A stretch of DNA of 64,000 nucleotides from a virus: the IMG/VR virus record IMGVR_UViG_3300032288_001980, positions 96,001 to 160,000 of that record. One strand, given 5' to 3'. The notes below the pieces were generated by a model. The model saw nothing but the letters and a program-made list of their open reading frames with translations. It had not been told where the DNA came from and made no database searches. The position numbers and the translations under genes were made by a program. This document shows, one piece after another, positions 3,821 to 27,866 of the stretch; position 1 is the first letter of the stretch, and each line of letters begins with the position of its first letter.

Positions 3821-4035
3821 TGAGCTATCGACATACCGTTGTCGCACGTGATCCAAATCATTTAAGCAACATTATTTGGATAGCCAAAGACTATCTGGCC
3901 CTGCATGCCACAGGGCCTTTTTCCGTTTATGCAGAAAACGGAAAAGCAGTAATAGAGCTCAACGAAGCTGAAGACAGTTTTTTGCTCAAACTCAGCACTT
4001 GGAGCGAAGTGTTGGATCATGACCCAGCATCTTAA
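3820..4035 (+). CDS. hypothetical protein
   Basis: TAATG-coupled ORF. Confidence 0.6.
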   Translation: MSYRHTVVARDPNHLSNIIWIAKDYLALHATGPFSVYAENGKAVIELNEAEDSFLLKLSTWSEVLDHDPAS

Positions 4036-4040
4036 GAAGC

Positions 4041-4046
4041 TAAATA
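4041..4046 (+). promoter_or_regulatory. candidate T4-type late promoter (TAAATA)
   Basis: Intergenic TAAATA upstream of the RBS and ATG 4101; a gp55-like sigma is encoded in this window. Confidence 0.5.
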
Positions 4047-4100
4047 TTATAGCTAGCTTTAACAGTAGCAATCATACACAGTAACAAGGAGAACTTTAAA

Positions 4101-4334
4101 ATGGAATTACAAATTTCCGATATTCAATTGGCCGCTCAGATCATTGACATCGCCGTACAACGCGGTGCCTTTAGGGCCGCAGAAGCTAAATCAGTTGGCG
4201 AATGCTATGAGCGTATTCAGGCTTTCTTATCTGAAGTTGCCAAGCAACAAGAAGCACAAAAGGCAGAAGCAGAAGCTAACGCACCAGCGGCAGCTCCGGC
4301 TGAAACTGTACCTGCCGATGCAAAAGTACAGTAA
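4101..4334 (+). CDS. hypothetical protein, Ala-rich C-terminus
   Basis: AAGGAG RBS, ORF. Confidence 0.8.
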   Translation: MELQISDIQLAAQIIDIAVQRGAFRAAEAKSVGECYERIQAFLSEVAKQQEAQKAEAEANAPAAAPAETVPADAKVQ

Positions 4335-4346
4335 TTGGAGACTAAG

Positions 4347-4874
4347 ATGAAATTTCTCAGACACGTGGGAGTTTTAAATGCAACAGGTCATAGAGCACTT
4401 GTTGTTTTTAGACAAATCCCAAACGAACCAACTAATTGTTTGGTCGTTGACACAGACGCCTTACCTGATAAGTACCACGACGACTTAATGGATGCTGTTG
4501 AAACTATCACAGCCCAGGAAGCCTTAGATTTTTATGAATATGCAAATCGTCAGTTCTTTAGTGATGGCACCAATATGTTAACCACCATGCATCAAAAAGG
4601 ATGGTTAATGAAGGTTAAAACAGATGCAGTCACAATGCGTCCTAGACCTGATATTGAAATTAGTTTGTTGGAACTCAACAATCAGATTTCAGCCATGAAT
4701 GGTGATGAGCCTAATACTACTGAAGGTGTGTTAGATAATAGTAAACTAGCATCCGATCTTCGTCGTCAAGCATCTCTGTTTGAAAAGCAAGCAGAAGACT
4801 TACGCAAGCAAGCTGACGATTTAGATCCACCTAAAGTTAAAAAATCATCTAAGAAATCTAATGTCGTTGCTTGA
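4347..4874 (+). CDS. hypothetical protein with C-terminal coiled coil
   Basis: GGAG RBS at 4337-4340 before ATG 4347. Confidence 0.8.
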   Translation: MKFLRHVGVLNATGHRALVVFRQIPNEPTNCLVVDTDALPDKYHDDLMDAVETITAQEALDFYEYANRQFFSDGTNMLTTMHQKGWLMKVKTDAVTMRPRPDIEISLLELNNQISAMNGDEPNTTEGVLDNSKLASDLRRQASLFEKQAEDLRKQADDLDPPKVKKSSKKSNVVA

Positions 4875-5127
4875 CAAAATTTTAGAAGAAGTTAAAATAG
4901 AGCGACAACGGCAAATAGATTTGCCAGGAAGCGAATATGACCTTGTTAATAATGTAAATGACTGGCTAGCAATAGCTGGTCATTACTTAACACAAGACTG
5001 TACTCGCAAAGGTATAAAACCTACTAGACTGGATTTTCATAGTAGTTTGGTAAAAGCGGCGGCTGTAATAGTTGCGGCATTAGAATACGAAGAAAACTTA
5101 GTTCGAAAAGGTCACATAAAAGAATGA
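4861..5127 (+). CDS. hypothetical protein
   Basis: ORF overlapping the previous stop, operon-like packing. Confidence 0.7.
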   Translation: MSLLDKILEEVKIERQRQIDLPGSEYDLVNNVNDWLAIAGHYLTQDCTRKGIKPTRLDFHSSLVKAAAVIVAALEYEENLVRKGHIKE

Positions 5128-5128
5128 C

Positions 5129-5461
5129 ATGGCTATTAGAAAAAAAGATCGTGGCTTTGACGACATCCTCGACGATGTTGTAATGAACCAAGTTCCTGCT
5201 GAATATATTGAAGAAGTATTGGTTCATTTAACTAACGGGCAAACTATTAGATTTACAGGAAACGAGATAGCAAAGCTAGACAGTTTACCAGAAAAATTAC
5301 AAGAAGAAGGCTTAATTGAAACCAAAGAAATGGTATCCGATGTTGAGATAACCATGGACCTTGCAAGAATCAAAAAACACATGAAGAAGTATGTTAGTAC
5401 ATTAATGGCTAAACATTTTGAGAGCGGCGGAGACACAGATGACAACAAGAAGCGAAATTAA
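5129..5461 (+). CDS. hypothetical protein
   Basis: ORF in operon packing. Confidence 0.7.
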   Translation: MAIRKKDRGFDDILDDVVMNQVPAEYIEEVLVHLTNGQTIRFTGNEIAKLDSLPEKLQEEGLIETKEMVSDVEITMDLARIKKHMKKYVSTLMAKHFESGGDTDDNKKRN

Positions 5462-6323
5462 TTTTGAACAAGATAAAAATTATGTTCCTGTACTAGATCA
5501 CGGCTTTGTAGGACTAGTGGATCACATGGGCAGTGACGGAGCAGTAGTGCAGGCTGCTCGTGTTAGCTACGGAGCAGGAACAAAACAAGTTCAAGATGAT
5601 AGAAATTTAATTCGCTATTTAATGAGACACAAACACACAACACCATTTGAGATGTGTGAAGTAAAGTTTCATATTAAATTGCCTATTTTTGTTATGCGAC
5701 AATTAGTACGACATCGTACTGCCAGCATGAACGAATATAGTGCTCGTTATAGCGTGATGACAGACGAGTTTTATATTCCTGAACTAGAACAAATACAACA
5801 ACAAAGTTCTACTAACAAGCAAGGGAGAGAAGACAATGACTGGGGATTCGAAGAAAAACGAGGAGTGCAACATGCCTTCCAACGAAGTTTTTTCAATGCT
5901 TATAAAGAATACACCGAGCTTTTGGGAAAGGATGGGACTGGCCTTACTCGCGAACTGTCCAGAAGCGTACTCCCAGTGGGCGGCTATACAGAACTCTACT
6001 GGAAAGCAAACCTCAAAAACTTCCTCCACATGGCCCGACTAAGAATGGACAGTCATGCACAATGGGAGATTCAAGAGTTTGCAAGAGCGATGTATGACCT
6101 GGTAAAGCCCTTGTTTCCTCAAGTGTGCGAGGCCTTCGAAGATTACGAACAATACAGCATATCGTGCAGTAGAATGGAAGTAGACTTAATTAAACGTTTA
6201 ATCGGTCAAGATAAATGGTTAGACCTATTAGAAGACTTCAGGGATATTAACGGCATTGCTAAACAGTATGGCATGGGACAACGTGAAATTAAAGAATTCA
6301 CAGAGAAATGGTTAACCAAGTAA
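5439..6323 (+). CDS. thyX: FAD-dependent thymidylate synthase ThyX
   Basis: AARVSY, RHKHTTPFE, RHRTASMNEYSARYS ThyX motif, HAQWEI; GGAG RBS before ATG 5439. Confidence 0.95.
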   Translation: MTTRSEINFEQDKNYVPVLDHGFVGLVDHMGSDGAVVQAARVSYGAGTKQVQDDRNLIRYLMRHKHTTPFEMCEVKFHIKLPIFVMRQLVRHRTASMNEYSARYSVMTDEFYIPELEQIQQQSSTNKQGREDNDWGFEEKRGVQHAFQRSFFNAYKEYTELLGKDGTGLTRELSRSVLPVGGYTELYWKANLKNFLHMARLRMDSHAQWEIQEFARAMYDLVKPLFPQVCEAFEDYEQYSISCSRMEVDLIKRLIGQDKWLDLLEDFRDINGIAKQYGMGQREIKEFTEKWLTK

Positions 6324-6925
6324 TTGTAACTGACTTATGCAGAAATTCAACGTATTTGGAATTGTTCAACAAAGTAGTAGAAGAAATTCAACTAGGCGAT
6401 GATGAGCTAAAAGCCAATTACGTTGATATTCAGCCAAAAGATTTTGCTAGCCTCACTGTTGCTATACGCGGTAGTGAGGTTTTAGCTTTTAGTGGTATGC
6501 AAATTCAACCTGACAGGTGGGGCACAGGTAAGGCTAGAGTTAGTGCTAGATTTTACATACCTCCTAAATTTAGACACGCACATTTACAAAAATTTGAACC
6601 CAGTGATAGGTACGTTAATAGCGCATATCTAATACCTAGACAAATAGCTGTTGCCAAAAGTTTGAATTTAGATTGCGTGTTTATTAGTCGTGAAGATAAA
6701 CAAAGAAGTTTCAGTAAATTTATAGATTTAGTTAACGCCAATGGCGGCTATAATTTTAAAATGCATGAAACAAAATTAGGCGTATGTGGACCATTACCTA
6801 AAGGATATATGCCCAGCGAGTGTTGTCAATGGGTAGCAACTATGCCACTTAAAGACGGAGCCGATTATGATTTCATTGGCTACTTAAAACAAATAACCTG
6901 CGAGAACTGCAATGAGACCAAATAA
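6308..6925 (+). CDS. hypothetical protein, possible GNAT-like fold
   Basis: RVSARFYIPPKFRH followed by a helix and a CVFISRE strand resembles GNAT motifs A/B; weak. Confidence 0.45.
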   Translation: MVNQVIVTDLCRNSTYLELFNKVVEEIQLGDDELKANYVDIQPKDFASLTVAIRGSEVLAFSGMQIQPDRWGTGKARVSARFYIPPKFRHAHLQKFEPSDRYVNSAYLIPRQIAVAKSLNLDCVFISREDKQRSFSKFIDLVNANGGYNFKMHETKLGVCGPLPKGYMPSECCQWVATMPLKDGADYDFIGYLKQITCENCNETK

Positions 6926-7508
6926 GATAGCTATTACTGGACACACTAAAGGTATAGGATCGGCCTTGGCCAATTACTACACAGCCCTTGGTATAGAAGT
7001 TATAGGCTTTAGTCGCACTAACGGATATGATATCAGTAAAGGTGTTGACCAAGAACGCATTATAAACGAAAGTCAGGACTGTGATTTGTTTATCAACAAT
7101 GCTTACTTTAGATATTCCCAAGTAGACTTACTACAACGTTGGTATAATTTTCACCAAAAGAAATCTAATTATATGATTGTTAATATGAGCAGTTTGGCTG
7201 GCGATGCTTGTATGCATTTAGGTAAAGTTTATCCATATGGTCTTCACAAAAAAGCTCTAGACGATGCTAGTTATCAAATGAACTTGGCCGGTGGCTGTAA
7301 ATGTAAAATTATCAACATCAAGCCCGGGCATATTAAAACTGACTTCTTAACGGAAACTAGCACATATACCTATGCACAACTGCGCCAGCCTAGCAGTATT
7401 ATGTCTGTAGATCAGTTGGTAAAGGTTGTTGCATTTGCTGTAGATATTGCCGATGAGAAAAGTTACATAAGTAATGTAACATACAAAGGCGACACTAGTA
7501 CAATATAA
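6912..7508 (+). CDS. short-chain dehydrogenase/reductase (SDR)
   Basis: ITGHTKGIG Rossmann motif, INNAY, catalytic YGLHK (YxxxK), IKPGHIKT. Confidence 0.88.
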   Translation: MRPNKIAITGHTKGIGSALANYYTALGIEVIGFSRTNGYDISKGVDQERIINESQDCDLFINNAYFRYSQVDLLQRWYNFHQKKSNYMIVNMSSLAGDACMHLGKVYPYGLHKKALDDASYQMNLAGGCKCKIINIKPGHIKTDFLTETSTYTYAQLRQPSSIMSVDQLVKVVAFAVDIADEKSYISNVTYKGDTSTI

Positions 7509-8062
7509 TGTCAGACACTTTAGACGTACAAAAATTAGATATTAAATTTGATCCGGCAAAGTTAAAAAGAGAGCTGGGCTTATTATACCACCAATATCCT
7601 TTTCATAAGGATGCCAATCAACTGGCTCTTAGTCACAGCGGCAAATTTACAACTGTTAAAGAACAATTATACGACGGAGTAGGTAGCTTATATGATCGTA
7701 AAAACAATGTAGAGATAGATCAAGAAGACAATTATACTCATATTTGTGATTACGTTAAAGGAAGATACTGGGAAGAAGTAATTAATCAAATAAAAGAAAT
7801 AAGTCCTTTACCGTTAGGTCGGATTCGATTAATGTTACTCAAACCTAAAACTTGTTATAGTTGGCACAAAGACAGCGATGAAATTAGATACCATGTACCT
7901 ATAAGTACTAATGCCAATAACTTTATTGCTACAGAAAAAGGCCTTTACAGAATGGAAGAAGAGGGTAGATTATATACATTAGTAAGTACAGTTTGGCATA
8001 CAGCACTGAACGCTAGTTTCCAACCTAGGGTACACTTAGTATGTTCTACATATAAAACATGA
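7508..8062 (+). CDS. Fe(II)/2OG dioxygenase, AspH-like cupin
   Basis: RIRLMLL, WHKD (HxD), RYHVP, distal WHTALN, RVHLV. Confidence 0.8.
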   Translation: MSDTLDVQKLDIKFDPAKLKRELGLLYHQYPFHKDANQLALSHSGKFTTVKEQLYDGVGSLYDRKNNVEIDQEDNYTHICDYVKGRYWEEVINQIKEISPLPLGRIRLMLLKPKTCYSWHKDSDEIRYHVPISTNANNFIATEKGLYRMEEEGRLYTLVSTVWHTALNASFQPRVHLVCSTYKT

Positions 8063-8652
8063 TATTTTTTGACCACATTGCATCCAATTTAAATGTTATA
8101 CCTGCCTTAGAAGAAGTAATGGCAAATAACAACTTATTTGCTCCTCATACAAAAGTTAAGGCAATTAGTCCTGCACTAGAAGAAGTAGAAAGCATACATC
8201 TACGCATACATCCGCCGGTAGAAGTACAAAGCCGAAAAGAAGGCGAACACTGGGACGCCAAAGACCTTGCTGATCAACAGGCTAGATCTATTATTGATAC
8301 AGAAGCTTTTAAACAGTTAAATCAGGTGCGTAAACTAATAGAACATGCAATGACTCTACTACCCGCAGGACATTTAGGCAGGGCATATATATCTAAACTT
8401 GTCCCAGGAGGAAAGATTTATCCGCACGTAGATCCTGGATTATACTTTGCTATACATAATAGATATCATATTGTATTAACTACAAATCCTGACGTAGAAT
8501 TTTTTACAGAAACAGAAAATATTAAGTGCCAGCCAGGCGAACTGTGGCGGTTTAATAACAGAGCTAAACACTGGGGAGAAAATAAAGGCAGTACAGATAG
8601 ACTGCATATTATTTTTGACATTGCACATAATCCTAGATTTTATGACTATTAA
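8059..8652 (+). CDS. aspartyl/asparaginyl beta-hydroxylase-family dioxygenase
   Basis: IYPHVD, RYHIVL, GELWRFNN, HWGEN, DRLHIIFD. Confidence 0.85.
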   Translation: MIFFDHIASNLNVIPALEEVMANNNLFAPHTKVKAISPALEEVESIHLRIHPPVEVQSRKEGEHWDAKDLADQQARSIIDTEAFKQLNQVRKLIEHAMTLLPAGHLGRAYISKLVPGGKIYPHVDPGLYFAIHNRYHIVLTTNPDVEFFTETENIKCQPGELWRFNNRAKHWGENKGSTDRLHIIFDIAHNPRFYDY

Positions 8653-9511
8653 ACATACACCTATTAACAAAGACATTGGTAGTCTAGTAGAAGCATCCTT
8701 TGATGAAATGATGCAGTTTGACGACTTTGAATTAAGAGAATTAATTTATCGACGCAAGGCTCTTGTGTTTAAAAACGTTAACGTTAGCGCCGATGAAATG
8801 GCTGCATTTAGTAAGAAGTTTGGCAAGCCATGGACTGCTGACATGTATCAAAATCATACTAAAGAACATTTCAAAGTAGCTGCCAACGAAGTAGCATATA
8901 CAGAGTACGACGACAAAAGCTATCCTAGATTATACAAAAGTCTAACATGGCACTGTGATATTGCCAATGAACGAGGATTAGAACCTTTTCCCTTTAGACT
9001 GTTATACTGTACAGACTTGCCTACTAAGATGAAAGGCGGGTCCACTGATGTTGCAGACTTAGGGATTATTCGCAGGGATTGGGATAACAAGCCGCCACAT
9101 AACATTAATTTAAAGAATTTAAATTTCTTATATAATAGTTGGCAGAAAAATTTTACAAATCAAAAATGGTATCCTGCAATTGATCGTCATCCATGGACAG
9201 GTGAAGAATTTGTTAGATATAATGCATTTGGTACTGACGGTGCTTGGATACTTAGAACTGTTATTAAAAAAGAAGACGGTGATGTATGGTTACCTAACGA
9301 GTTTATGCGTGATCTTAGTGTTGGACAAATTGAAGCTACAGACTTTCTAGAGCATAAATGGGAAGTGGGTGATGTATTAATATTTGATAACTGGGCAACA
9401 ATACACAGACGAGGAGATATGGAAATCTTGGAGGGCAGTGAAGGTCGTAGAAGTTTTATACGTATCAGCATTGACCACGAATTTGACAAGATGCCACCGT
9501 ATATACCATGA
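8642..9511 (+). CDS. TauD/TfdA-family dioxygenase
   Basis: ALVFKN, WHCD, GGSTDVAD, HKWEVGDVLIFDNWATIHRR; ATG 8642 overlaps the previous stop. Confidence 0.88.
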   Translation: MTIKHTPINKDIGSLVEASFDEMMQFDDFELRELIYRRKALVFKNVNVSADEMAAFSKKFGKPWTADMYQNHTKEHFKVAANEVAYTEYDDKSYPRLYKSLTWHCDIANERGLEPFPFRLLYCTDLPTKMKGGSTDVADLGIIRRDWDNKPPHNINLKNLNFLYNSWQKNFTNQKWYPAIDRHPWTGEEFVRYNAFGTDGAWILRTVIKKEDGDVWLPNEFMRDLSVGQIEATDFLEHKWEVGDVLIFDNWATIHRRGDMEILEGSEGRRSFIRISIDHEFDKMPPYIP

Positions 9512-10443
9512 TAGAGTACACAGAAAATAATCACTTTCACTGGACCTATGACAACGTTCCGTTTGCATTGCGTAAGAATCCTTATAGCACATTTAAAATG
9601 CACTGGGGTAAACCTAGCCGGCCGGTAGGCAACTTCAAGGACGAAAGCCTTAATGTTTGCCGTATGTTAGCAGACCGATACCCTAATCAAAAGTTTAACG
9701 TGTTCTTTAGTGGTGGTATTGACAGTGAACTTGTTCTACAAGCATTTATGTGGGCTGGACTAAAGCATCGTACAAAAGCAACTATTATTCGTTTCAAAGA
9801 CGGATACAATGATCATGATATACAATATGCCACAGATTTTTGTGTGTATCACAATGTTCCGCATACTGTTTTAGAACTAGATATAGTAGAATTTTATCGC
9901 AGTAAGGAATATATTCCACTGGGTATGAAGTATCAAAGTATCCAACTAGCACAAATACAATGCTTGTGGGCACTAGACAAGATACAAGATGATATCCCTG
10001 TATTGGGCACCGGAGAAGTATTCTTTGAAAAAATATTCAATTGGAAGTCTTGGATGGCCGACGAACCCAAACAAGAATACAATTGGGTGTATTATGTCAG
10101 GGAAAACAATGATCTTAGTGTGCCAAAATATAGTGTATTGAATCAGCGACCTGTTATCAGTGAGTTCTTTAGTTATACTCCCGAAATCATGAAAGCCTAT
10201 GTAAATGATTCTATTGTACAGGATTTATTAGCCGATAGACTTCCGGGAAAATTAAGTATTGCAAGTAGCAAGTATTCAATATATAATAAGTACTTCTTTC
10301 TCAAGCCTAGAAAAAAATATCACGGCTATGAAACACTCAAATTGTTAAACGTGCAGGCTCAACATGAAATGCTACAGTATATACCTTATAACGACCATAG
10401 GTTTGAAATGTTAGCCACAGACTTTATTAAGACGCTAGAATGA
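9508..10443 (+). CDS. PP-loop (adenine nucleotide alpha-hydrolase) protein, type A; paralog of 59392-60477
   Basis: FSGGIDSE PP-loop; shares YTENNHF, G.G(E/D), YTPE and KY.G(Y/F)E with the paralog. Confidence 0.75.
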   Translation: MIEYTENNHFHWTYDNVPFALRKNPYSTFKMHWGKPSRPVGNFKDESLNVCRMLADRYPNQKFNVFFSGGIDSELVLQAFMWAGLKHRTKATIIRFKDGYNDHDIQYATDFCVYHNVPHTVLELDIVEFYRSKEYIPLGMKYQSIQLAQIQCLWALDKIQDDIPVLGTGEVFFEKIFNWKSWMADEPKQEYNWVYYVRENNDLSVPKYSVLNQRPVISEFFSYTPEIMKAYVNDSIVQDLLADRLPGKLSIASSKYSIYNKYFFLKPRKKYHGYETLKLLNVQAQHEMLQYIPYNDHRFEMLATDFIKTLE

Positions 10444-11057
10444 AAATCGTAAAACTAGACCTAAGCTACTTTGACCAAATCAACGATATTCAGCAAGATT
10501 ACAATACTTTTGCAGGAGTTGATGTTAGTAGTGTGCCTTATTACAGGGCAGATATGGCTATGAGTCGCCATAACAATCTTGCTAATTTATATTTAGGAGA
10601 AGACAATCCACAATTTATGATGTGGGGCTATGTCGACGAAACAAATAACAATCGATTGTATGCCGCAATGACTCAGTATTTTAATCCTGATGTTAACATG
10701 TGGTATATTCAAAAAGCTATTACACGTAGAGCAGAACGTATTCCTAGTTTGGGCAACAGAAACGGCTTAGTTGAAGTAATGCAACATGCCATCGATTTTG
10801 CAGAAAAACGAGATTGTTTTCAATACATTATGGCTTATCCTAAACGCTACTATTTGGCGCACAAACGTATTTGGCCTAAATATGTCAAACAACGTCAAGA
10901 ACGGTACGACAGCGTAGTAATAAATGTAATTCCTGCTAATACACGACCACCATTTTTAGACCAATGGATGTGGTTAATGAATAGTGCATTATGGCCCACT
11001 GATTTAGTTGTTACTATGCAGTACCTACGTCCAGAATTTAGACAAGAAATTGTCTGA
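10440..11057 (+). CDS. GNAT-like hypothetical protein; paralog of 15081-15719
   Basis: MWGY-strand-strand-helix pattern; shared VIP..R and P..V motifs with the paralog. Confidence 0.5.
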   Translation: MKIVKLDLSYFDQINDIQQDYNTFAGVDVSSVPYYRADMAMSRHNNLANLYLGEDNPQFMMWGYVDETNNNRLYAAMTQYFNPDVNMWYIQKAITRRAERIPSLGNRNGLVEVMQHAIDFAEKRDCFQYIMAYPKRYYLAHKRIWPKYVKQRQERYDSVVINVIPANTRPPFLDQWMWLMNSALWPTDLVVTMQYLRPEFRQEIV

Positions 11058-11065
11058 TATAAATA
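11058..11065 (+). promoter_or_regulatory. T4 late-promoter consensus TATAAATA, 5 nt before the desaturase ATG
   Basis: Exact TATAAATA 11058-11065, then TCAAT, then ATG 11071; no Shine-Dalgarno. Confidence 0.6.
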
Positions 11066-11070
11066 TCAAT

Positions 11071-11838
11071 ATGAAAACTACTGGACACAGCATAAAACTA
11101 TTTTGGCCTGTACATATTGCAGCCTTGCTGGGCGCTATTGCCATGGCATTATGGGGTAATTTAAATTACCTTTGGTTCTGGCCTGTCGGCTGGATATTAA
11201 TTAGCGGACTAGGCAGTGCTATTGGTCTGCACAGAGTACTAAGCCACAAATGTTTGCCGGAAACAAGTAAGTTTACCAAAAGAGTTCTAACATTGCTGGG
11301 CTGTATGGCCGGGCAAGGAAGTCCTATTTTCTGGGTAGCACTACACAGGGGCTATCATCACAGTCACGCCGACACACCTCGAGATATACACAGTCCTATA
11401 CACGGTTTATTTCATTCTTACCTAAGTTGGAGTTGGAAGATTACTCCCACTGATGTTAACTTGAAATATGCTGTGGATCTATTACGTGACAAATTTCAAG
11501 TATGGGTACATACCAACTATTATAAACTAGTATGGAGTGTAATCATTGTTACAGCATTAATCAATTGGCAGTTAGCCGTTTGTTTAATTTTGTTGCCTAT
11601 GATTACAGGTATTCATCAAGAAGCTTGCATCAACATGTTCTGTCATTTAAAGAACGTTGGTTATAGGAATCACGAAATCAACGACAACAGCCATAATGTA
11701 CCTGTATTGGGTTATTTTGCTTGGGGTCAGGGTTGGCACAACAACCATCACAAACATCCTGGTAATTATAATTTTGGAGAAAAGTGGTGGGAATTTGACC
11801 CTTGTATGATTTTTTATCCTATACTCAAAAGAATTTAA
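11071..11838 (+). CDS. membrane fatty-acid desaturase (Delta9/DesC-like)
   Basis: Three His boxes HRVLSH, HRGYHH, HNNHH; GQGSPIFW; EKWWEFDP. Confidence 0.92.
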   Translation: MKTTGHSIKLFWPVHIAALLGAIAMALWGNLNYLWFWPVGWILISGLGSAIGLHRVLSHKCLPETSKFTKRVLTLLGCMAGQGSPIFWVALHRGYHHSHADTPRDIHSPIHGLFHSYLSWSWKITPTDVNLKYAVDLLRDKFQVWVHTNYYKLVWSVIIVTALINWQLAVCLILLPMITGIHQEACINMFCHLKNVGYRNHEINDNSHNVPVLGYFAWGQGWHNNHHKHPGNYNFGEKWWEFDPCMIFYPILKRI

Positions 11839-13385
11839 TGACTGTCGATATTTTAATTTTTACTGAATTTACCAGCACGACCGTATTTCAACGCCTAATA
11901 GGTGCGTATCGTATTGCCACGGAGTTGCGTAAAAATGGCTATACGGTACAGGTAGTAGATTACTTAACTGAATGGACACCCGAAGAGCTTAATCAAATTG
12001 TAGATAAATTTGTAGGTTCCAATACATTATTTGTTGGCTTTAGTAGCACTCTTTATGCTATACGAGATCAAGCACTCAGCGATAACAGTAGACCTAACCA
12101 TTATCGTAGAGAATTAAGATATACAGAAGATTTTCCATTTAGACCCGAAGTCAGTTACGCATTTATTAAACACATTAAAGAAGTCAATCCTAATACTAAA
12201 ATTGTTTTAGGTGGCCAGCGCAGTCAATACAAAAACAGTAAATTAGTAGACTGTTTTATTCACGGCTATGCGGACCACACTACTGTAGAATATGCACATT
12301 ATTTGTCGGGCAAGCCTTATGATCAATCTGTGTTAAAGATGATTCCTATCAATGATCATCAAATAGAAATAGATTGGATCAAAGATCCTGAGTGGAACTT
12401 TCAAACTAGCCAAGTACTATGGCAAGACAATGACTTAATTTACGACAATGAAGTGTTGCCCATTGAAATTAGTAGGGGTTGTATCTTTAGATGTGATTTT
12501 TGTAGCTTTCCTATGAATGGCAAAGACAAGTTTGATTATATCAAAGACAGTACACCACTTAAAGAAGAATTTATACGCAACTATGAAAAGTGGGGAATAA
12601 CGAATTATATCTTTGCTGACGACACTTACAACGACAGTATCTACAAAGTAGAAAAACTTTACAACGAAGTATTTTCGCAACTACCATTTAAAATACAATT
12701 CAGTGCATATTTGCGACACGACTTAATTCACGCTAATCGAGATATGGCGCCGCTACTAAAAGAAAGCGGACTTAAGACTTGTGTGTTTGGTTTAGAAAGT
12801 CTAAATCATAAAAGTGCATTAGCTATTGGCAAAGGCCTGCACCCAGAGAAAAGCAAAGAATTATTGCACTGGTTACGTGACGAAGCATGGGGTAAAGATA
12901 TTACAATGAGCAGTGGCTTTATTGTAGGCTTGCCACACGAAACAGAAGAAACATTTCGTGAATGGATGGAATGGGTCGAAGATGAAAACTGTCCATTGGA
13001 TGGATATACTGTTGAGCCGCTGGGCTTTAACATTAACGAAAAGAAAATTTGGCCCAGCAAGTTTGAAGCTAATCCGGAAGCCTATGGTTACAACATTATC
13101 AACAAAGGTGTTGCTAACAATAGTTTTTTCCGTTGGAGTATGTGGAGCAATCCTCATATGACGCTACCTAAAGCGTGGGCAATTGCCGATGAATATATTA
13201 TGCGAGGGTACCGAAGTGGGCGGATCAAGCCAGCTGGCTTCTTCCAGTTCATGTGGATGAATGGCACTGGTTTAACCGCCGACGATTTAGCAGGAATGAG
13301 CGTTAAAAATGTCAGTGCAGATTTTTTAAAAGACAAAAAAACTGAATGGTTTAAACTTTACAAACAAAGACTTTTTAATTTATAA
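11838..13385 (+). CDS. B12-binding-domain radical SAM protein
   Basis: GAYRIATELRKNGYTVQVVD N-terminal domain, ISRGCIFRCDFC (CxxxCxxC), DDTYN, FGLESL, FIVGLPHET; TAATG coupling. Confidence 0.9.
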   Translation: MTVDILIFTEFTSTTVFQRLIGAYRIATELRKNGYTVQVVDYLTEWTPEELNQIVDKFVGSNTLFVGFSSTLYAIRDQALSDNSRPNHYRRELRYTEDFPFRPEVSYAFIKHIKEVNPNTKIVLGGQRSQYKNSKLVDCFIHGYADHTTVEYAHYLSGKPYDQSVLKMIPINDHQIEIDWIKDPEWNFQTSQVLWQDNDLIYDNEVLPIEISRGCIFRCDFCSFPMNGKDKFDYIKDSTPLKEEFIRNYEKWGITNYIFADDTYNDSIYKVEKLYNEVFSQLPFKIQFSAYLRHDLIHANRDMAPLLKESGLKTCVFGLESLNHKSALAIGKGLHPEKSKELLHWLRDEAWGKDITMSSGFIVGLPHETEETFREWMEWVEDENCPLDGYTVEPLGFNINEKKIWPSKFEANPEAYGYNIINKGVANNSFFRWSMWSNPHMTLPKAWAIADEYIMRGYRSGRIKPAGFFQFMWMNGTGLTADDLAGMSVKNVSADFLKDKKTEWFKLYKQRLFNL

Positions 13386-13396
13386 GAGAGACAGAC

Positions 13397-14017
13397 ATGT
13401 GGGTACACATATTAACTAACAGTATGAATAGAGTGTTAGTACATGCTCAGGACAAGAAACATTTATATTTTGTTAATGAATGTTTTTTTGATACTCATGT
13501 ATACACAGGAGATCTAGACAAGAATCTCGAATCACAATTTAAATCTAACCCTAGCGACTTTATGCTTCGTGGTTCTAAAATTGTTTATAGTCCAGGTGAA
13601 AATATCGATGACTATCGTAAGTTTGTAGAATACAAATTATGGAGTTACTATGATATATTAACTAAAATAAATCTAGCTAGAGTAAAAGAAATTGAAATTT
13701 GTGCCGGGCAATCAGAAGTATACAAGATGAAATACGATCAGGCCTGCTTACTAAAAGAACACAGCTACGATGCTAAATTAGTTGGCCATAACCGAGTACA
13801 ACTAGTACTAGATTATGCAGAGTTAGATAACTGTACTGTTGAGCAAGCCGCAGATCAAATCATATTGCAATATACAATGCATTTAGAAATGATGACTAAA
13901 ACAGAATGGTTTAGAATCAAATATATGCGATTACTAAAACAAGCCAAGACTGCTGGAGAAGTAAAACAAGTTATGGATAGCTTGCACAAAGAAACATTTT
14001 TGAATATACTATTATGA
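13397..14017 (+). CDS. helical hypothetical protein; paralog of 61508-62149
   Basis: C-terminal CT.(E/D).A...(E).(F/I)R......KQA.T..EV shared with the paralog. Confidence 0.7.
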   Translation: MWVHILTNSMNRVLVHAQDKKHLYFVNECFFDTHVYTGDLDKNLESQFKSNPSDFMLRGSKIVYSPGENIDDYRKFVEYKLWSYYDILTKINLARVKEIEICAGQSEVYKMKYDQACLLKEHSYDAKLVGHNRVQLVLDYAELDNCTVEQAADQIILQYTMHLEMMTKTEWFRIKYMRLLKQAKTAGEVKQVMDSLHKETFLNILL

Positions 14018-15087
14018 GTTCGTTAATATATTATAATCAGTTAGACTTATATAAACCGCAATGGTGCTCTAAGTATCCTGAGCTAGATAAATTCAGTGTA
14101 TTCAGTAAAGCATTTAACAGTGGCATAAGCCTTGTAGACCGAACTGGAACTATAAAGATGCCGGTTAATTTAGTTAACAGACATCCTATGCCTGCGCTAC
14201 AACCAAGTGTATATACGTTTGAAGAACTTTGTTATCTAACATGGCAAAAAATTGAACTGCATATAAGAACTACTAAATTAAGACCTGTAATTATGTACAG
14301 CGGTGGAATTGACAGTACTTTAATTGTTAATTTAATGCATACATACGCCAGTAAAGAATTTAAAGAAAGATTGTTAATTATATTAAACAGCAATAGCATA
14401 CAAGAAAATCCTGTACTATACGAAACTGTAATTAAACGAAATTACAAAACAGAAAGTTCTAACAGTTTTGAAAATTATTTCAATCACTTTAATTACGTTA
14501 TTACAGGAGAGTTCGCTGACAATGTATTCGGTAGTTTAACTTTAAAATCTAGCATTGATTTTTTTGCAACCGAGGCCGTTATTACTGGCAACTACAAAGT
14601 ATTTGCATTTGATTTCTTTAACGCTAAAATAAATGATGCAGATAAAACTAATTGGTTCTTGGACCAAATGGAGCAATTGATAAAAACTTGTCCATGGGAA
14701 ATTAAAACATGGGCTGATTACTTATGGTATCAAAACTTTGCAATGAAGTGGCAGGCCGTTGAGTTTAGAATTATGAGTCATAAAAATGATTCATTAATTG
14801 TCAATGACGAATTCTTGAATAAGCATGTATGCCATTTCTGGGCTAGCGAAGAATGGCAACAGTGGAGTATAAACAATCCTGATAAGAAAATTAAAAATAC
14901 GTGGGTAAGTTATAAGTTCCCTGCTAAAGAACTTATCTATAAATTAAGCAAGGACAGTGACTATCTTGAACGCAAAACTAAATTTCCTAGCTTGCCTGGT
15001 GTATTTAGATATCGAAGAGTTAATAACTTTATTACAGATAAGTTTGAATTTGTAGATGACATTAAAATAGAGGATTATCTATGTTAA
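14014..15087 (+). CDS. asparagine-synthase-like PP-loop protein lacking a glutaminase domain, type B; paralog of 60480-61517
   Basis: MYSGGIDST, SIQENP, ITGEFADNVFG, KTKFPSL. Confidence 0.8.
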   Translation: MSSLIYYNQLDLYKPQWCSKYPELDKFSVFSKAFNSGISLVDRTGTIKMPVNLVNRHPMPALQPSVYTFEELCYLTWQKIELHIRTTKLRPVIMYSGGIDSTLIVNLMHTYASKEFKERLLIILNSNSIQENPVLYETVIKRNYKTESSNSFENYFNHFNYVITGEFADNVFGSLTLKSSIDFFATEAVITGNYKVFAFDFFNAKINDADKTNWFLDQMEQLIKTCPWEIKTWADYLWYQNFAMKWQAVEFRIMSHKNDSLIVNDEFLNKHVCHFWASEEWQQWSINNPDKKIKNTWVSYKFPAKELIYKLSKDSDYLERKTKFPSLPGVFRYRRVNNFITDKFEFVDDIKIEDYLC

Positions 15088-15719
15088 ACAATGTTGCATA
15101 TCAGTTAACTGTTGACGATTTGCCCCGCATTTTAGAAATTTATAAAACTAGAAATTCTAATTTGAAAGTTAAAATAACAACAACGTTAGATCAATATTTT
15201 CAAAAAGCATTCGAAGTTGCATGTAGTAATCGACTAGGTCATAGTGCATGGGGTTACAAAAATGACAAGGGCGAACTTATAATGTTTGCTACACGTAGTC
15301 ATTGGTCTAGTATGCCTTATGCCACTATAGGAAATGTCTTTATTGACTCTGAAAATTCTTTTTTTGGATTAAACAAAAAAGGCCTAATGACAATGAATCA
15401 GTTTTTAACTGATATTTTTTATGACAGTGCAATAAATCATCAACGGTATGTATCTTATATGGCGCGAACATATAAAGATGCTGTAGTTTCTATTAAAAGC
15501 ATTAAGCGAACAGAACAAGATAGAAACTTGATATTTAAAATGGGATTTGTTGAAATTATTCCTCCTTATAATAGAGCTAAATTTGAATTTGGTAGTAATA
15601 TATTAGGAATACTTGAAGGTAGGAATCCCGAACCTGTAATTATACGTAACTGGACTCTGGAGCCCAATCAAATACCTGCACTTGCCAGATTAAAGAATTA
15701 TGAATTTGTTATTAACTAA
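15081..15719 (+). CDS. GNAT-like hypothetical protein; paralog of 10440-11057
   Basis: LTVDDLPRILEIY start, AWGY, IIPPYNR motifs. Confidence 0.5.
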   Translation: MLNNVAYQLTVDDLPRILEIYKTRNSNLKVKITTTLDQYFQKAFEVACSNRLGHSAWGYKNDKGELIMFATRSHWSSMPYATIGNVFIDSENSFFGLNKKGLMTMNQFLTDIFYDSAINHQRYVSYMARTYKDAVVSIKSIKRTEQDRNLIFKMGFVEIIPPYNRAKFEFGSNILGILEGRNPEPVIIRNWTLEPNQIPALARLKNYEFVIN

Positions 15720-15740
15720 ATATACAACTTGGAGAATATT

Positions 15741-16049
15741 ATGAGCATTAAAATTATCACTATTATGAAGCGTCCCAGCGAAGATATTGAGTTTTTCTTT
15801 CTGAAGTACAAGGACCATCCTGTTATGACACAAATGAGAATGAATGCCATGGAGCATCCAGGATTTGTGGGCACAAAGGTAGAAATAAGCGAAGACCGGT
15901 TAACTAGTACAGTTACCATGGAGTTTACCAACGACAACGATTTAAGGTCTTTTGTTAATGCCAACGAAGAACTACTAGTTCAACGCGGTATGCTAATGGA
16001 CGAATGGGTAACTGCAAATAACTGTCAGTTTGACGTTTATATTGGTTAA
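15741..16049 (+). CDS. small hypothetical protein, possible ferredoxin-like/dimeric alpha-beta barrel fold
   Basis: GGAG RBS, TAAATA at 15717-15722; strand-helix-strand-strand-helix pattern. Confidence 0.7.
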   Translation: MSIKIITIMKRPSEDIEFFFLKYKDHPVMTQMRMNAMEHPGFVGTKVEISEDRLTSTVTMEFTNDNDLRSFVNANEELLVQRGMLMDEWVTANNCQFDVYIG

Positions 16050-16870
16050 CGTTTAAAGCCAATAATCATAAACCTATGCCAGCCTGCATAGGATATAGAG
16101 CCAGAATAAACAATGTCAATGTCATGGCATTGTTTTTCAAATTCCTCAAGAGTTTCTACACAATTAACATGATCCTGCATCTCAAACATATTATTTGTTT
16201 GAAGTAGTAATAATTTTCCTGTAGGTATCATATCTAACCATGCTTGAAAGTTGGCTACATGCTCGCATATTGTATTGACAATTGTGTCATGGACTGAATA
16301 ATCAACTGTATAGATATCATGATCGACAGCCAAGTACTTTCCTTTACTAGCTAAATCTAAATTTAAAATCATACCAGCACGATTAGCAACATCATCTATA
16401 TCGTAGCTTATAACTTTTGAATTATCATTGGCTTCTATTAATATAATTCGGGCCAGCGTTCCTATCCAGCCTCCACATAAGCATATAGTACCCAAGTCGT
16501 AAGACTTTAGTTGCTCTGCGGCCCAGATTTTACTTTGTACTTGAAACCTACTTAGGCCGTCTCGCCAGTTGACTTCGGGAAATTCTTTTATAGCTGTTTG
16601 TAAATTACTTAATAGAGTAGCATCAACTGTATGAGTCGCTAAAAATAACTCTATTAGTTTATCTACGTTATCCAAGTCATTTGCCAGTCTGTCAATAATA
16701 GCAGATGTCTTTGTTCTTATCATGTAAGGAACACTGTCAATTACTGCTTGTTTATTTTCTTCGCTGGCATGATGCACATAGTCGTAAATCATCTTAAACA
16801 ACGGTTTGTTTATTTGAACTCTTTTGTATTCATCGAGCCCGTATAATAAGTCTTTACTTTGCAGATTCAT
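16046..16870 (-). CDS. class I SAM-dependent methyltransferase-like protein
   Basis: CLCGGWIG motif I, SYDID acidic motif, IVNTICEH. Confidence 0.75.
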   Translation of the reverse strand: MNLQSKDLLYGLDEYKRVQINKPLFKMIYDYVHHASEENKQAVIDSVPYMIRTKTSAIIDRLANDLDNVDKLIELFLATHTVDATLLSNLQTAIKEFPEVNWRDGLSRFQVQSKIWAAEQLKSYDLGTICLCGGWIGTLARIILIEANDNSKVISYDIDDVANRAGMILNLDLASKGKYLAVDHDIYTVDYSVHDTIVNTICEHVANFQAWLDMIPTGKLLLLQTNNMFEMQDHVNCVETLEEFEKQCHDIDIVYSGSISYAGWHRFMIIGFKR

Positions 16871-18938
16871 AGTTTAACCATTGAGTATGCAACCAATCAT
16901 AATCGTTAATCATGTTTATAGAATCTTTGTTATTTTGTATCCAATCTCTGCCAGCACACGCACCTGCAACGGCATAGTCGCCGTTACTTACACCTAGATT
17001 AACGGTACACCATGTTTGTAATCGTTGATCGGACTCGCTGTCAATTTGGTTTTTAATTACTTTACTAGCCAGTTTTGCCGCTTCCCTGAATCCACTGCGC
17101 CATGCAGTTTCTGGATCACAATTAAATTCTGTAGTACCTATAACTCTTGGTATAACTTTAAATCCTGCACCTATACTAGTAGCCAAGTCAACACGCCAGT
17201 CAGTTGCATTTTTTAATAATTTGGTAGGGAATAGTTTTACACCACCGTAGCCATAAGTTAAACCGTTAACCGGATTCTTAACGTGCCACACATAGACTAC
17301 ATTTCTATCATGCGGCTTTGGATATAAGTCAAAAGCAAAGCTACCTTCGACTACACAATCTGCATCTACTAGATAAAACATATCTGTAGTAACTACATTG
17401 GCAGCGGCCTTATGTGCTTCTAATATTCCTTTGACCCCGTCAACTCTATGTAACTTGGATTTATTATGAATTAATTTTTCTAGCTTTGCATAGTTACTGT
17501 CTGCATAAGGCTCGTTATTGCTCAAAAATACAATGTCAAATTCTTCCTCGGTACACCCGTGCTCAAAACATTTTATAGCACCACGTTTAACTTTATCTGT
17601 GAGCTCTATGCCTTGTGGCACTAGATAACATCCTGCCCATTCAGTTACTCTGCCTGTTTTAGGATTAGTCATTGTAAACACATGAACTTTATCTTCGTTA
17701 CCGCGGCCAGGCATAAACTTTTTATTCCACTGGGGCACTGGTATGCAATTTTTATCAAAATGCCAATATAGTTTTGTATCACCGGGCCCGATGCTCCACT
17801 CAGTCATAAAGGGTCTAGCGTAACCTTGTTCTTTGTATCCTTGAGTATTTGTTACATAGGAAACTTTAACTCCGTACTTTTTATCTGTACCTTCACAGTA
17901 CCAAACGTGCAAGAATTGTAAACTATCATAACTGGGAACAAATTTGTTTGTTACATTAGACCAATCATATAATTGAAAATCCGGATTGACTTGTATTTTT
18001 GGTTGGAGATTTAACTCTATCTCACCCATGTCTAGCTCACCTGTTATAGAATCACTGGGTGTTAGCCTGACTGCCCAAATTCTTTCACCGGGGGGTGTAT
18101 GACTAGAATCCAAATACCAAGTATGGGTTAGATTCATCTTATCTGCTAGCGGTCTATAGTTATACTCAAAGTTTTTGAAGTTAATGTTTTCAAACAAAGG
18201 ATTGGTTTCCCATTTCATATTATCATAGAAATTTAAAACGTTTAACGTGCCTTCTACAACTGTGCCTACAAAGTGCTGTGGCTCTAAACTATATGCCCAT
18301 ACATCGTAATTTGGTAGTTCGACATCTCCTGCCAAATTCCATACATGTCTATATTTTCCCTGGCTATAGTGAAAGTTATTAGTATTGTCTATGCCTGAGT
18401 ATATGCTGTCAGGGAGACTTGTATTTTTTATTAATTTAAACTGATTTTTTGCAGTTTTATCTACAATTTTTAATCCTTGCGGGTCTGAAATATAAGAAAT
18501 TCGTACAGCTTCAATGTCTTCGCCGTCTGTAATAGCAGGGTCAAACAGCCATATATGTTCATATTTCAAATCGTAAGTTGGCGGTAAAAAGTCTACCATT
18601 TGTTTAATGTCAGCATTATAGTATGTGCTAACAGTTATTCGACGTTTTGGTTCTGTTATGTACTGAACATAGCCGCCGTCCCATCTAGCAGGAATTAATT
18701 TTGCTAACCAAAAACTTCTGTCGGGCCAAATCCATATATGTAGATTTTTAGACTCGTAGCCGATCGGAGAAAAGCCCCAATCAAAGTTTTCAAATACTTC
18801 TAAATCTTGTATTTCTTTATTGACAAACCAAGTAGTTTGTCCGTTAGTCATAGCCGATAACTCTTGATCAGTAAAAGGCCTGTCAACAAATACTACTGGA
18901 AATTTACTTATTTGTGTAATGCTGTCTAAATCTGTCAT
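16854..18938 (-). CDS. glycosyltransferase-like protein (GT-A, DAD motif) with degenerate N-terminal repeats
   Basis: C-terminal FDIVFLSNNEP...VKGILEAH...FYLVDAD...NPVNGLTYGYGGVKLF; start placed at MTDLDS. Confidence 0.7.
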   Translation of the reverse strand: MTDLDSITQISKFPVVFVDRPFTDQELSAMTNGQTTWFVNKEIQDLEVFENFDWGFSPIGYESKNLHIWIWPDRSFWLAKLIPARWDGGYVQYITEPKRRITVSTYYNADIKQMVDFLPPTYDLKYEHIWLFDPAITDGEDIEAVRISYISDPQGLKIVDKTAKNQFKLIKNTSLPDSIYSGIDNTNNFHYSQGKYRHVWNLAGDVELPNYDVWAYSLEPQHFVGTVVEGTLNVLNFYDNMKWETNPLFENINFKNFEYNYRPLADKMNLTHTWYLDSSHTPPGERIWAVRLTPSDSITGELDMGEIELNLQPKIQVNPDFQLYDWSNVTNKFVPSYDSLQFLHVWYCEGTDKKYGVKVSYVTNTQGYKEQGYARPFMTEWSIGPGDTKLYWHFDKNCIPVPQWNKKFMPGRGNEDKVHVFTMTNPKTGRVTEWAGCYLVPQGIELTDKVKRGAIKCFEHGCTEEEFDIVFLSNNEPYADSNYAKLEKLIHNKSKLHRVDGVKGILEAHKAAANVVTTDMFYLVDADCVVEGSFAFDLYPKPHDRNVVYVWHVKNPVNGLTYGYGGVKLFPTKLLKNATDWRVDLATSIGAGFKVIPRVIGTTEFNCDPETAWRSGFREAAKLASKVIKNQIDSESDQRLQTWCTVNLGVSNGDYAVAGACAGRDWIQNNKDSINMINDYDWLHTQWLNYESAK

Positions 18939-19608
18939 ATAACCACTCGAAATCATTAACTCGTTTAAGTGCTTCTAGATTGTTTTTATTTTCGGTGCCG
19001 TACTGTTTTCCAGCAACAGCACCAGAGATCGCTTCTTTGGCATAATTGCCTTCGGCGATAGTACACCATGTATCTAAACGTTGTTTAGTAATGTCATCAT
19101 CACTAATTATACCACTGGCCAGTTTAGTACACTCTCTGAACGCACTACGCCATGTACTAAAAGGATCAGTGTTGAATTGCGTTATGTTGCTTATTTGTTC
19201 TTTGCTGACAAACTCTGCCCCCATACTAGTAGCAAGATCAACACGCCATTCTTTAATGTTTAATAATAAATCTTTTCGAAACAGTTTTACGCCGCCATAT
19301 CCATACACTAGATTGTTTACAGGATTTTTACTAGTCCAACAAAATACACAATCAGTTGACGGTATTCTTCCGTAGATTAATTCGGATACAGTTGGACTGT
19401 AGTCAAAGTAAAAATCATCAACTATATAAGCATCTGCATCTACAACATAAAAATGACTAGTCATGCTTTTTCTTGCGGCAGCTTGATGTGCTTCTAATAT
19501 TCCTTTGACCCCCGATACTCTTTTTGCATGAGGAGCATACTCTAATAATCTCGAGTAGTTTGCTTCTGCATTAGGTTCGTTATAACTTAAAAATATAACA
19601 TCAAGCAC
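18904..19608 (-). CDS. glycosyltransferase-like protein (GT-A, DAD motif), paralog 2
   Basis: VIFLSYNEP, VKGILEAH, FYVVDAD, YGYGGVKLF, WRSAFRECTKL. Confidence 0.75.
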   Translation of the reverse strand: MLDVIFLSYNEPNAEANYSRLLEYAPHAKRVSGVKGILEAHQAAARKSMTSHFYVVDADAYIVDDFYFDYSPTVSELIYGRIPSTDCVFCWTSKNPVNNLVYGYGGVKLFRKDLLLNIKEWRVDLATSMGAEFVSKEQISNITQFNTDPFSTWRSAFRECTKLASGIISDDDITKQRLDTWCTIAEGNYAKEAISGAVAGKQYGTENKNNLEALKRVNDFEWLYDRFRQHYTNK

Positions 19609-27860: not shown

Positions 27861-27866
27861 TATTTA
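27861..27866 (-). promoter_or_regulatory. candidate late promoter TAAATA
   Basis: Overlaps the stop of the giant gene, 20 nt upstream of ATG 27840. Confidence 0.45.

Follow-up and report, generated by a model that had tools for sequence, protein, structure and literature searches.

Which pathway, if any, is formed by a run of 13 tailoring-enzyme genes in an uncultured phage, and on what does it act? The run lies in a 64,000-nucleotide (nt) stretch of DNA (the window), which corresponds to bases 96001 to 160000 of the 183,898-bp virus record IMGVR_UViG_3300032288_001980 in IMG/VR. The record is about 52% complete according to CheckV, which sets the scope of every absence stated here for this phage and indicates that it is probably a jumbo phage; a protein of its tail region is 40% identical to one of the Ralstonia jumbo phage RsoM2USA. 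The list of open reading frames (ORFs) of the window bears out the single co-oriented, overlap-coupled run of 13 plus-strand genes at 6308 to 16049 described in an initial annotation, with 9 of the 12 gene junctions overlapping by 1 to 38 nt and the other three gapped by 11 to 21 nt. Twelve of the 13 family labels given there were verified by Pfam, profile, motif, and hhalign evidence, the exception being gene 1. The cluster is a real, selected pathway with a conserved core, and it is tentatively assigned here to the building or remodeling of an acyl chain. The genes, preceded by the overlapping ThyX gene directly upstream of gene 1, are as follows.

5418-6323 (+): ThyX, flavin-dependent thymidylate synthase (Pfam Thy1, E value of 1.4e-56; RHR...S motif)
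6308-6925 (+): gene 1, 205-amino-acid (aa) protein of an unnamed family with conserved Cys residues near the C terminus (family alignments)
6912-7508 (+): gene 2, short-chain dehydrogenase/reductase (SDR), 198 aa (adh_short, 31.5 bits versus a cut-off of 26.6; FabG-like PHROG)
7508-8062 (+): gene 3, AspH-like Fe(II)/2-oxoglutarate (2OG) oxygenase 1, 184 aa, soluble (PF05118, Asp_Arg_Hydrox, E value of 2e-7)
8059-8652 (+): gene 4, AspH-like Fe(II)/2OG oxygenase 2, 197 aa (PF05118, Asp_Arg_Hydrox, E value of 1e-15)
8615-9511 (+): gene 5, TauD/TfdA-family Fe(II)/2OG oxygenase (PF02668, E value of 1.6e-22, 81 bits)
9508-10443 (+): gene 6, PP-loop ATPase A, core (SGGIDSE; conserved GGE, FSYTPE, and KYHGYE)
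10440-11057 (+): gene 7, GNAT-fold protein, core (matches to PDB GNAT profiles; structural model)
11071-11838 (+): gene 8, integral-membrane delta-9-type fatty-acid desaturase, core (PF00487, 52 bits versus a cut-off of 29.7)
11802-13385 (+): gene 9, putative class B (B12-binding) radical SAM enzyme (Radical_SAM, 59.6 bits; CxxxCxxC)
13397-14017 (+): gene 10, helical partner of PP-loop B, no known family, core (position and alignment)
14014-15087 (+): gene 11, PP-loop ATPase B, asparagine-synthetase-class synthetase domain, core (alignment, AlphaFold, and Foldseek)
15081-15719 (+): gene 12, second GNAT-fold protein, paralogue of gene 7 (hhalign, 98%, E value of 1e-13)
15741-16049 (+): gene 13, conserved 102-aa protein, family unassigned (start ATG 15741, the same Met in all relatives)

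Conservation and distribution of the cluster

All 13 genes are syntenic and in the same order in four independent close relatives, one of which is a 231-kb contig, with identities of 65 to 95%. Two contigs at 38 to 50% identity have a reduced set at the same site behind ThyX, consisting of a GNAT gene, PP-loop A, the GNAT-fold gene, the desaturase, the partner, PP-loop B, and a third PP-loop A-like gene. This reduced set defines the conserved core of the cluster, namely, the trio of PP-loop A, GNAT-fold protein, and desaturase plus the pair of partner and PP-loop B. The SDR, the AspH pair, TauD, the B12 radical SAM enzyme, and genes 1, 12, and 13 form a changeable shell.

The PP-loop B family was sampled by profile, giving at least 453 viral loci and at least 140 bacterial-species loci, and hidden Markov models (HMMs) built for every cluster family were run over the fetched loci. 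Desaturase, PP-loop A, GNAT-fold, and AspH genes lie within 8 kb of PP-loop B in 48 to 57% of 87 viral PP-loop B genes, and ThyX lies within this distance in 40%. When the viral PP-loop B proteins were clustered at 60% identity, the partner was kept in 31 of 37 lineages, and the full set of PP-loop A, GNAT-fold protein, and desaturase was found near PP-loop B in 10 of the 37, in collinear, convergent, or shuffled arrangements. Most of the loci sampled by PP-loop A have the order PP-loop A, GNAT-fold protein, desaturase, and genes for AspH, TauD, the gene 1 family, radical SAM, SDR, and GNAT proteins recur around this trio at varying positions. Co-occurrence across phages had been set beforehand as the test of a cluster against a random hotspot. 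Because the whole cluster is syntenic in close relatives and its families recur together, rearranged, across divergent viral contigs, the cluster is a real, selected pathway and not a chance pile of auxiliary genes. The proposal of a natural-product or modification pathway without a scaffold synthase is supported in part, and it is refined in that the 13 genes divide into a core and a shell.

In bacteria, the partner/PP-loop B pair is mostly found alone, in Patescibacteria (candidate phyla radiation [CPR]), Bdellovibrionales, and Burkholderiales, and a more distant form of the pair, often followed by a cupin gene, is present in Bacteroidota. The cultured bacterium Duganella sacchari (locus L135) encodes PP-loop A, a GNAT-fold protein, a desaturase, a GNAT, a partner-like protein, PP-loop B, and a cupin in this order, in DNA of native G+C content. 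A Cupin_2 gene, weakly ectoine-synthase-like, follows or lies near bacterial PP-loop B at positions 11098 to 11802 of L027, 11053 to 11703 of L135, and 12574 to 13077 of L026, and the corresponding position in phages is taken by a GNAT-fold or PP-loop A-like gene. Giant proteins without known domains adjoin the module in Duganella (2,633 aa) and in Bacteroidota.

Searches of 50,697 GenBank phage records gave no match to the cluster (megablast) or to the radical SAM enzyme and PP-loop B (tblastn). The desaturase was matched in GenBank phages only by Pelagibacter phage Mosig and by a record labeled "Acinetobacter phage MD-2021a" (L190; CAKLQH020000002.1). In the latter record, the match is surrounded by trpB, trpC, btuB, baeSR, and aidB, a gene content that looks like that of a bacterial chromosome rather than a phage. 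No published description of the PP-loop A/GNAT-fold/desaturase trio, the partner/PP-loop B pair, or the optional ACP linkage (see below) was found in literature searches. Each of the enzyme superfamilies is already known, and what is new is the widespread core of a phage auxiliary tailoring island, that is, a multienzyme pathway whose core is fixed across hundreds of uncultured large phages and which reaches cultured bacteria. None of the core proteins carries a family name, and phage auxiliary genes are usually read singly. The module is testable, with its core present in the cultured D. sacchari and with genes that are small and encode soluble proteins except for the desaturase.

Core enzymes and the optional acyl carrier protein

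Five of the cluster proteins had no family match, and four were studied in more depth. The PP-loop A family occurs at no fewer than 280 viral loci, and its profile matches NAD synthetase (1.6e-7), LarE-like proteins, and NcsA/TtuA in the PDB, with a score of 18 bits against Pfam Asn_synthase (PF00733; cut-off, 21). The gene for the GNAT-fold protein, gene 7, nearly always directly follows PP-loop A. Its family was collected by an exhaustive HMMER search (40 representatives), the family profile matches PDB GNATs, and the model of gene 7 (predicted local distance difference test [pLDDT] score of 92) has a plain GNAT fold. The family consensus has no conserved copy of the acyl-CoA pyrophosphate-binding loop Q/R-x-x-G-x-G/A, with LGNRNG preceding the helix at 110 to 123. 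Gene 12 is homologous to the gene 7 family, and thus each PP-loop gene is followed by a GNAT-fold paralogue. Gene 12 is the fastest evolving, with identities in relatives of 44 to 59% versus 65 to 95% for the neighboring genes, and its position, which is taken by a PP-loop A-like gene in more distant phages, may be specificity determining.

The desaturase contains three His boxes (HRVLSH, HRGYHH, and HNNHH) and a pair of hydrophobic hairpins, and it gives a weak DesA-family match in NCBIfam. Its start is most likely ATG 11071, giving a protein of about 255 aa, and not position 11008 as in the ORF list. A paralogue is present at 61846 to 62604 in the coordinates of the same phage record (G000). 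Integral-membrane di-iron desaturases of PF00487 act on hydrophobic chains, and the desaturase is the strongest clue to the substrate within the window. None of the 13 cluster proteins matches the AMP-binding (ANL) family; the activating enzymes that are present are the PP-loop ATPases.

In PP-loop B, the SGGIDS motif is invariant across 34 homologues and aligns to the PP-loop of LarE. Its AlphaFold model (pLDDT of 94) has the synthetase-domain fold of the AsnB type (Foldseek and VIA matches), the best structural matches being the hydroxyamidotransferase TsnB9, beta-lactam synthetase, and carbapenam synthetase. Members of this fold class adenylate a carboxylate and then exchange the AMP for a nitrogen nucleophile. 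PP-loop B shares SGGxDS and the synthetase fold with this asparagine synthetase B class, but it is a protein of 357 aa with about 10 to 15% identity, it is accompanied by an upstream helical partner, and it lacks the N-terminal Ntn glutaminase domain, with the PP-loop starting at residue 96 and only about 60 residues preceding the aligned synthetase domain. In addition, it has no Pfam Asn_synthase (PF00733) match. The partner gene lies directly upstream of PP-loop B in 83% of the 87 viral genes and in 31% of 83 bacterial genes. The C-terminal part of the partner is similar to a Patescibacteria (CPR) homologue (E value of 1e-10), and no PDB profile match to the partner and no Pfam match across 21 homologues were found. 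Language-model clusters naming it a tail protein or HI1402_helical had no Pfam support and were set aside. As part of the wider interpretation given below, the partner and PP-loop B could represent a new two-subunit branch of the asparagine-synthetase class common to phages, Patescibacteria (CPR), and predatory bacteria, which we regard as conceivable but rather unlikely. PP-loop B has three paralogues in the same phage, giving four genes in total. Two of the paralogues lie outside the window, at 37246 to 38984 (-) and 23375 to 24606 (+) of the record (G000:C1); the former has its own upstream partner-like gene, and the neighbors of both have no Pfam matches.

The initial annotation had noted the absence of a nonribosomal peptide synthetase (NRPS), polyketide synthase (PKS), or acyl carrier protein (ACP). 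This holds for the 183,898-bp record, in which no NRPS or PKS was seen, and it does not hold for the family, in which ACP genes are present at related loci. Pfam PP-binding identified ACP genes in two of five further relatives, exactly upstream of PP-loop A. In one of them (L248, 7786-8004), the gene encodes a 72-aa ACP with LDSLDIVEL, and its stop codon overlaps the PP-loop A start. When the relatives' ACPs were made into an HMM, the fetched loci yielded 20 ACP-like ORFs. In 11 related loci, the ORF is a canonical ACP gene with the (L/I)DSLD motif that overlaps the beginning of PP-loop A, and seven further ACP-like ORFs are located elsewhere in phage copies of this gene guild. A phage ACP is therefore optional in the pathway. 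The small ORFs at 4861 and 5129 upstream of the cluster were also considered as ACPs and were rejected by Pfam, despite an LDSL tetrapeptide in the latter.

A proposed acyl-chain pathway and its alternatives

On account of the desaturase, the ACPs of relatives, the kin of the accessory enzymes, and the carboxylate-amidating fold of PP-loop B, we tentatively read the cluster as a pathway that activates, transfers, desaturates, and hydroxylates or methylates an acyl chain and then links it through an amide, giving a lipid-like product; we consider the chance of this to be a little below even. The list of candidate substrates in the initial annotation (virion protein, lipid, nucleic acid, or metabolite) is narrowed toward acyl chains or lipids by the desaturase and the relatives' ACPs. 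The nearest named kin of the accessory enzymes, all of them weak matches, act on acyl chains, namely, LpxO, ScoE/Rv0097, the radical SAM enzymes of ladderane lipids, HpnJ, and HpnR, and FabG-like SDRs.

Under this interpretation, the phage would build or remodel an acyl-chain molecule in the infected cell and finish it with amide bonds. PP-loop A would activate a carboxylate with ATP, and the GNAT-fold protein would move the acyl or aminoacyl group between a thiol carrier and an amine, the carrier being the phage ACP where present and presumably the host ACP or CoA in this phage. The desaturase would put a double bond into the chain, and the AspH/LpxO-like pair, the TauD/ScoE-like enzyme, the SDR, and the B12 radical SAM enzyme may hydroxylate, oxidize, reduce, and C-methylate it. 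Conversion of a remaining carboxylate into an amide would fall to the partner and PP-loop B, together with a GNAT-fold protein of their own. The predicted product is an amide-linked, unsaturated, oxygenated lipid or lipo-amino acid that may act on or in the host envelope. A more far-reaching claim, that PP-loop ATPases in the role of ANL adenylases, together with the GNAT-fold protein, a carrier, and the desaturase, make a new class of amide lipids that alters the host envelope and thereby form a widespread, undescribed pathway, appears possible but doubtful. If it is true, phages would synthesize an envelope-active lipid-like amide of their own, beyond desaturating host lipids, and carrier-linked acyl activation and amidation without a glutaminase domain would be a new task for PP-loop enzymes.

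Several observations weigh against an acyl-chain pathway. No ACP was found in the 183,898 bp of this phage by Pfam PP-binding or by the HMM of the relatives' ACPs, and neither an acyl-ACP/CoA ligase nor a lipid-synthesis gene was found there; all three were likewise not found in seven related records, two of which are rated 100% complete. The carrier in these phages would therefore have to be supplied by the host. We know of no PP-loop enzyme that loads a carrier protein, and the gene 7 model resembles ordinary small acetyl-CoA-dependent GNATs, unlike the known types that use acyl-ACP. The labels of the accessory enzymes rest on weak, subthreshold similarity to families of very broad chemistry. 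In many phages, as well as in Patescibacteria (CPR), Bdellovibrionales, and Bacteroidota, the partner/PP-loop B pair stands by itself, away from a desaturase, and hence its substrate need not be a lipid. Finally, the recurrent ThyX neighbor is not accounted for by a lipid pathway.

Among known lipid systems, aminolipid and lipid A tailoring by OlsB, OlsC/LpxO, and OlsE is similar in combining a GNAT-like acyltransferase, an AspH/LpxO-family enzyme, and a membrane di-iron enzyme. The phage proteins differ in that their scores are far under the cut-offs and the AspH-like proteins are small, without a hydrophobic stretch of transmembrane length. In addition, the cluster has no OlsA/PlsC-type acyltransferase, and PP-loop ligases are foreign to those pathways.

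An improbable alternative is the tailoring of glycans or lipopolysaccharide (LPS), on the host surface or on virion sugars, through uronic-acid amidation or acetamidino formation (PP-loop), N-acylation (GNAT), C-methylation (radical SAM), and oxidation (SDR and 2OG enzymes). Sugar substrates are known for WbpG/PseA-type PP-loop amidotransferases, the cluster abuts a minus-strand block leading to tail genes, and in the cultured phage Mosig an island of AspH, FA_desaturase, TauD, GNAT, and AspH genes adjoins sugar aminotransferase, carbamoyltransferase, and tail-fiber genes. Hypervariable regions of pelagimyophages and cyanomyophages mix tail-fiber and LPS genes (PMC7029224). However, the membrane acyl desaturase and the ACPs of the core do not fit sugar chemistry, and the cluster has no nucleotide-sugar enzyme, glycosyltransferase, or aminotransferase. 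The three minus-strand genes adjoining the cluster have no Pfam match, and a glycosyltransferase character of the minus-strand genes at 16046 to 19608 was not confirmed by Pfam. The islands of T4-like pelagimyophages and cyanomyophages resemble the cluster in having AspH, FA_desaturase, TauD, GNAT, and radical SAM genes near tail genes, but the PP-loop/GNAT-fold/partner core has not been described there. AspH is reported to be core to pelagimyophages, and a stearoyl-CoA desaturase has been reported in freshwater ones (PMC7029224).

A diffusible small metabolite, such as an antibiotic-like or signaling amide derived from a short acid on a carrier and with a short acyl-ACP as the desaturase substrate, in the manner of JamB-type enzymes, is likewise given little credence. 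In its favor, TauD is ScoE-like, the structural matches of PP-loop B (TsnB9 and the beta-lactam and carbapenam synthetases) all make small natural products, and the order of ACP, adenylating enzyme, and desaturase in relatives resembles the JamABC/TtuABC starter cassettes, which comprise an acyl-ACP ligase, a dedicated ACP, and a membrane desaturase or acetylenase. The related phages have, in translationally coupled genes, an ACP, an ATP-using activating enzyme, an acyl-transfer protein, and a membrane desaturase. Unlike these cassettes, however, they use a PP-loop ATPase and not an ANL adenylase, a GNAT-fold protein stands in between, and no PKS or NRPS lies downstream. The JamABC combination of a dedicated ACP and an ANL ligase is absent from this phage, with no ACP found in its record, and the cluster lacks a downstream NRPS/PKS line, an exporter, and a resistance gene.

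Somewhat less probable still is a pathway that modifies a peptide or protein, such as a giant surface protein or a virion protein, through Asp/Asn hydroxylation (AspH), acylation (GNATs), and formation of an isopeptide or lasso-like amide (AsnB-like). Proteins are known substrates of AspH hydroxylation, and lasso cyclases are homologous to AsnB. A PPPDE-like papain-fold protein is encoded in the second module (see below), and domainless giant proteins are found near the module in Duganella and Bacteroidota and also in the window. Against these points, the desaturase and the ACPs are left unexplained, and the lead of the partner as a tail protein has no Pfam support. No precursor-like small variable ORF is present, in agreement with the earlier remark that a ribosomally synthesized and posttranslationally modified peptide (RiPP) precursor is not recognizable: the intergenic gaps are at most 21 nt, and the only small gene (gene 13, 102 aa) is conserved along its whole length rather than having a variable core.

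Very unlikely is the modification of nucleotides or nucleic acids, in which the PP-loop enzymes would activate the carboxylate of a base or of 7-carboxy-7-deazaguanine, followed by GNAT, 2OG, and radical SAM tailoring with a link to ThyX. ThyX is a recurrent neighbor, many PP-loop enzymes act on tRNA or nucleotides, and radical SAM, AspH, gene 1-like, and SDR genes adjoin a QueC-like gene in a jumbo-phage contig (L011). However, a membrane desaturase and ACPs make no sense in such a pathway, and PP-loop B belongs to a carboxylate-amidating class. A QueC-like ORF is present in the window at 42007 to 42642 (-) (Pfam QueC, 26 bits, above the cut-off); thus, no substitute for QueC is needed, PP-loop A was rejected as a replacement for a missing QueC, and the nucleic-acid alternative loses weight. 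The least credible explanation, a hotspot of unrelated auxiliary genes at one permissive genome site, agrees with the hypervariable islands of T4-like phages (PMC7029224) and with an accessory gene set that varies between lineages, but it is disfavored by the same families standing together in varied orders and orientations across many lineages, by overlapping start and stop codons, and by the persistence of the PP-loop A/GNAT-fold and partner/PP-loop B pairs into bacteria.

Tailoring shell, second module, and expression signals

The GNAT-like label of gene 1 is unproven. Its similarity to the GNAT-fold family is weak (hhalign probabilities of 1.7% and 12%), Pfam GNAT is matched weakly by 3 of 16 relatives (E values of 0.03 to 0.06), and the PDB profile match is at an E value of 0.3, with no Pfam, PHROG, or NCBIfam match for the protein itself. 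The gene 1 family is present in about 20 related loci, often oriented divergently from the desaturase gene. ThyX recurs beside the module in several phage lineages. In the gene 2 SDR, TGxxxGxG, the Ser, and YxxxK are readable. Gene 3 has a readable HxD plus a distal His, and its homologue adjoins a B12 radical SAM gene in L011. The only NCBIfam match of gene 4 is the lipid A hydroxylase LpxO, at 24 bits versus a cut-off of 500, and neither gene 3 nor gene 4 (7508 and 8059) has a hydrophobic stretch of transmembrane length; both the membrane anchor and the score expected of LpxO are lacking. A match of gene 4 to the Cpz10 beta-hydroxylase (E value of 0.03) was too weak to use. The nearest named or solved relatives of gene 5 are, weakly, the ScoE/Rv0097-type oxygenases, which act on (carboxymethyl)amino fatty acids; with an NCBIfam score of 46 bits versus a cut-off of 400, gene 5 is placed in the TauD superfamily only and not among the ScoE-type isonitrile synthases.

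Gene 9 is probably a C-methyltransferase. Its B12-binding domain is subthreshold (21.8 bits versus a cut-off of 32.1), and its best NCBIfam matches, all far below the cut-off, are PhpK, the ladderane-lipid radical SAM enzyme, and HpnJ. The start of gene 13 was corrected to ATG 15741, which has a GGAG ribosome-binding site upstream. No significant family match was found for gene 13, and its sequence pattern suggests a small alpha+beta fold. In the 299-kb contig of jumbo phage L011, the region at 3508 to 13319 contains two B12-type radical SAM genes and AspH, gene 1-like, SDR, methyltransferase, and cupin genes, together with a QueC-like PP-loop gene and a radical SAM gene with an HMPTM zinc ribbon; the shell genes can accompany another PP-loop enzyme as well. 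Among the minus-strand structural genes of the window, a 3,046-aa ORF is followed by a 1,075-aa ORF (27864-37004).

The phage has a second, paralogous module.

57596-62149 (+): second module, with a GNAT, a PhyH-type hydroxylase (HxD), a PPPDE-like papain-fold protein, PP-loop A', PP-loop B', and partner'

In the viral contig L072, orthologues of this module lie directly beside those of the first, which places both modules in one guild. Between L072 (2445-3284) and the window (58048-58887), the PhyH-type hydroxylase shares 84% identity, whereas the adjacent module genes are 26 to 54% identical, which suggests unusually strong constraint or recent exchange.

Two promoter-like motifs lie in the cluster.

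11058-11065 (+): TATAAATA, T4-type motif, single copy in the 64-kb window, 13 nt upstream of the desaturase start (ATG 11071)
15717-15722 (+): TAAATA promoter-like motif, 24 nt before ATG 15741 of gene 13, in the main distance class

In the whole genome record, 35 of 212 genes have TAAATA in the 45 nt preceding them versus 3.2 expected, an approximately 10-fold enrichment; the motif usually lies 22 to 38 nt before the start, with a second group at 10 to 13 nt. TAAATA can be taken as a genuine promoter-like motif of this phage. The short class, which the site at 11058 fits, would give nearly leaderless transcripts. The motif often takes the form A/T-TAAATA, with upstream examples at 2555, 15717, 26107, and 27193 of the window. 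TATAAATA is strongly depleted in the window, with 1 copy versus 9.7 expected. Late expression of the cluster had been proposed from TAAATA, and this is supported only in part: the upstream motif is genuine, but it precedes just the desaturase and gene 13, and no TAAATA motif was found upstream of the other 11 cluster genes. Scans for generic sigma-70 promoters and terminators were at chance level, the only convincing terminator match being a hairpin at 3897 to 3917 that precedes the plus-strand run. The other 11 genes probably rely on transcription entering from upstream of 4101.

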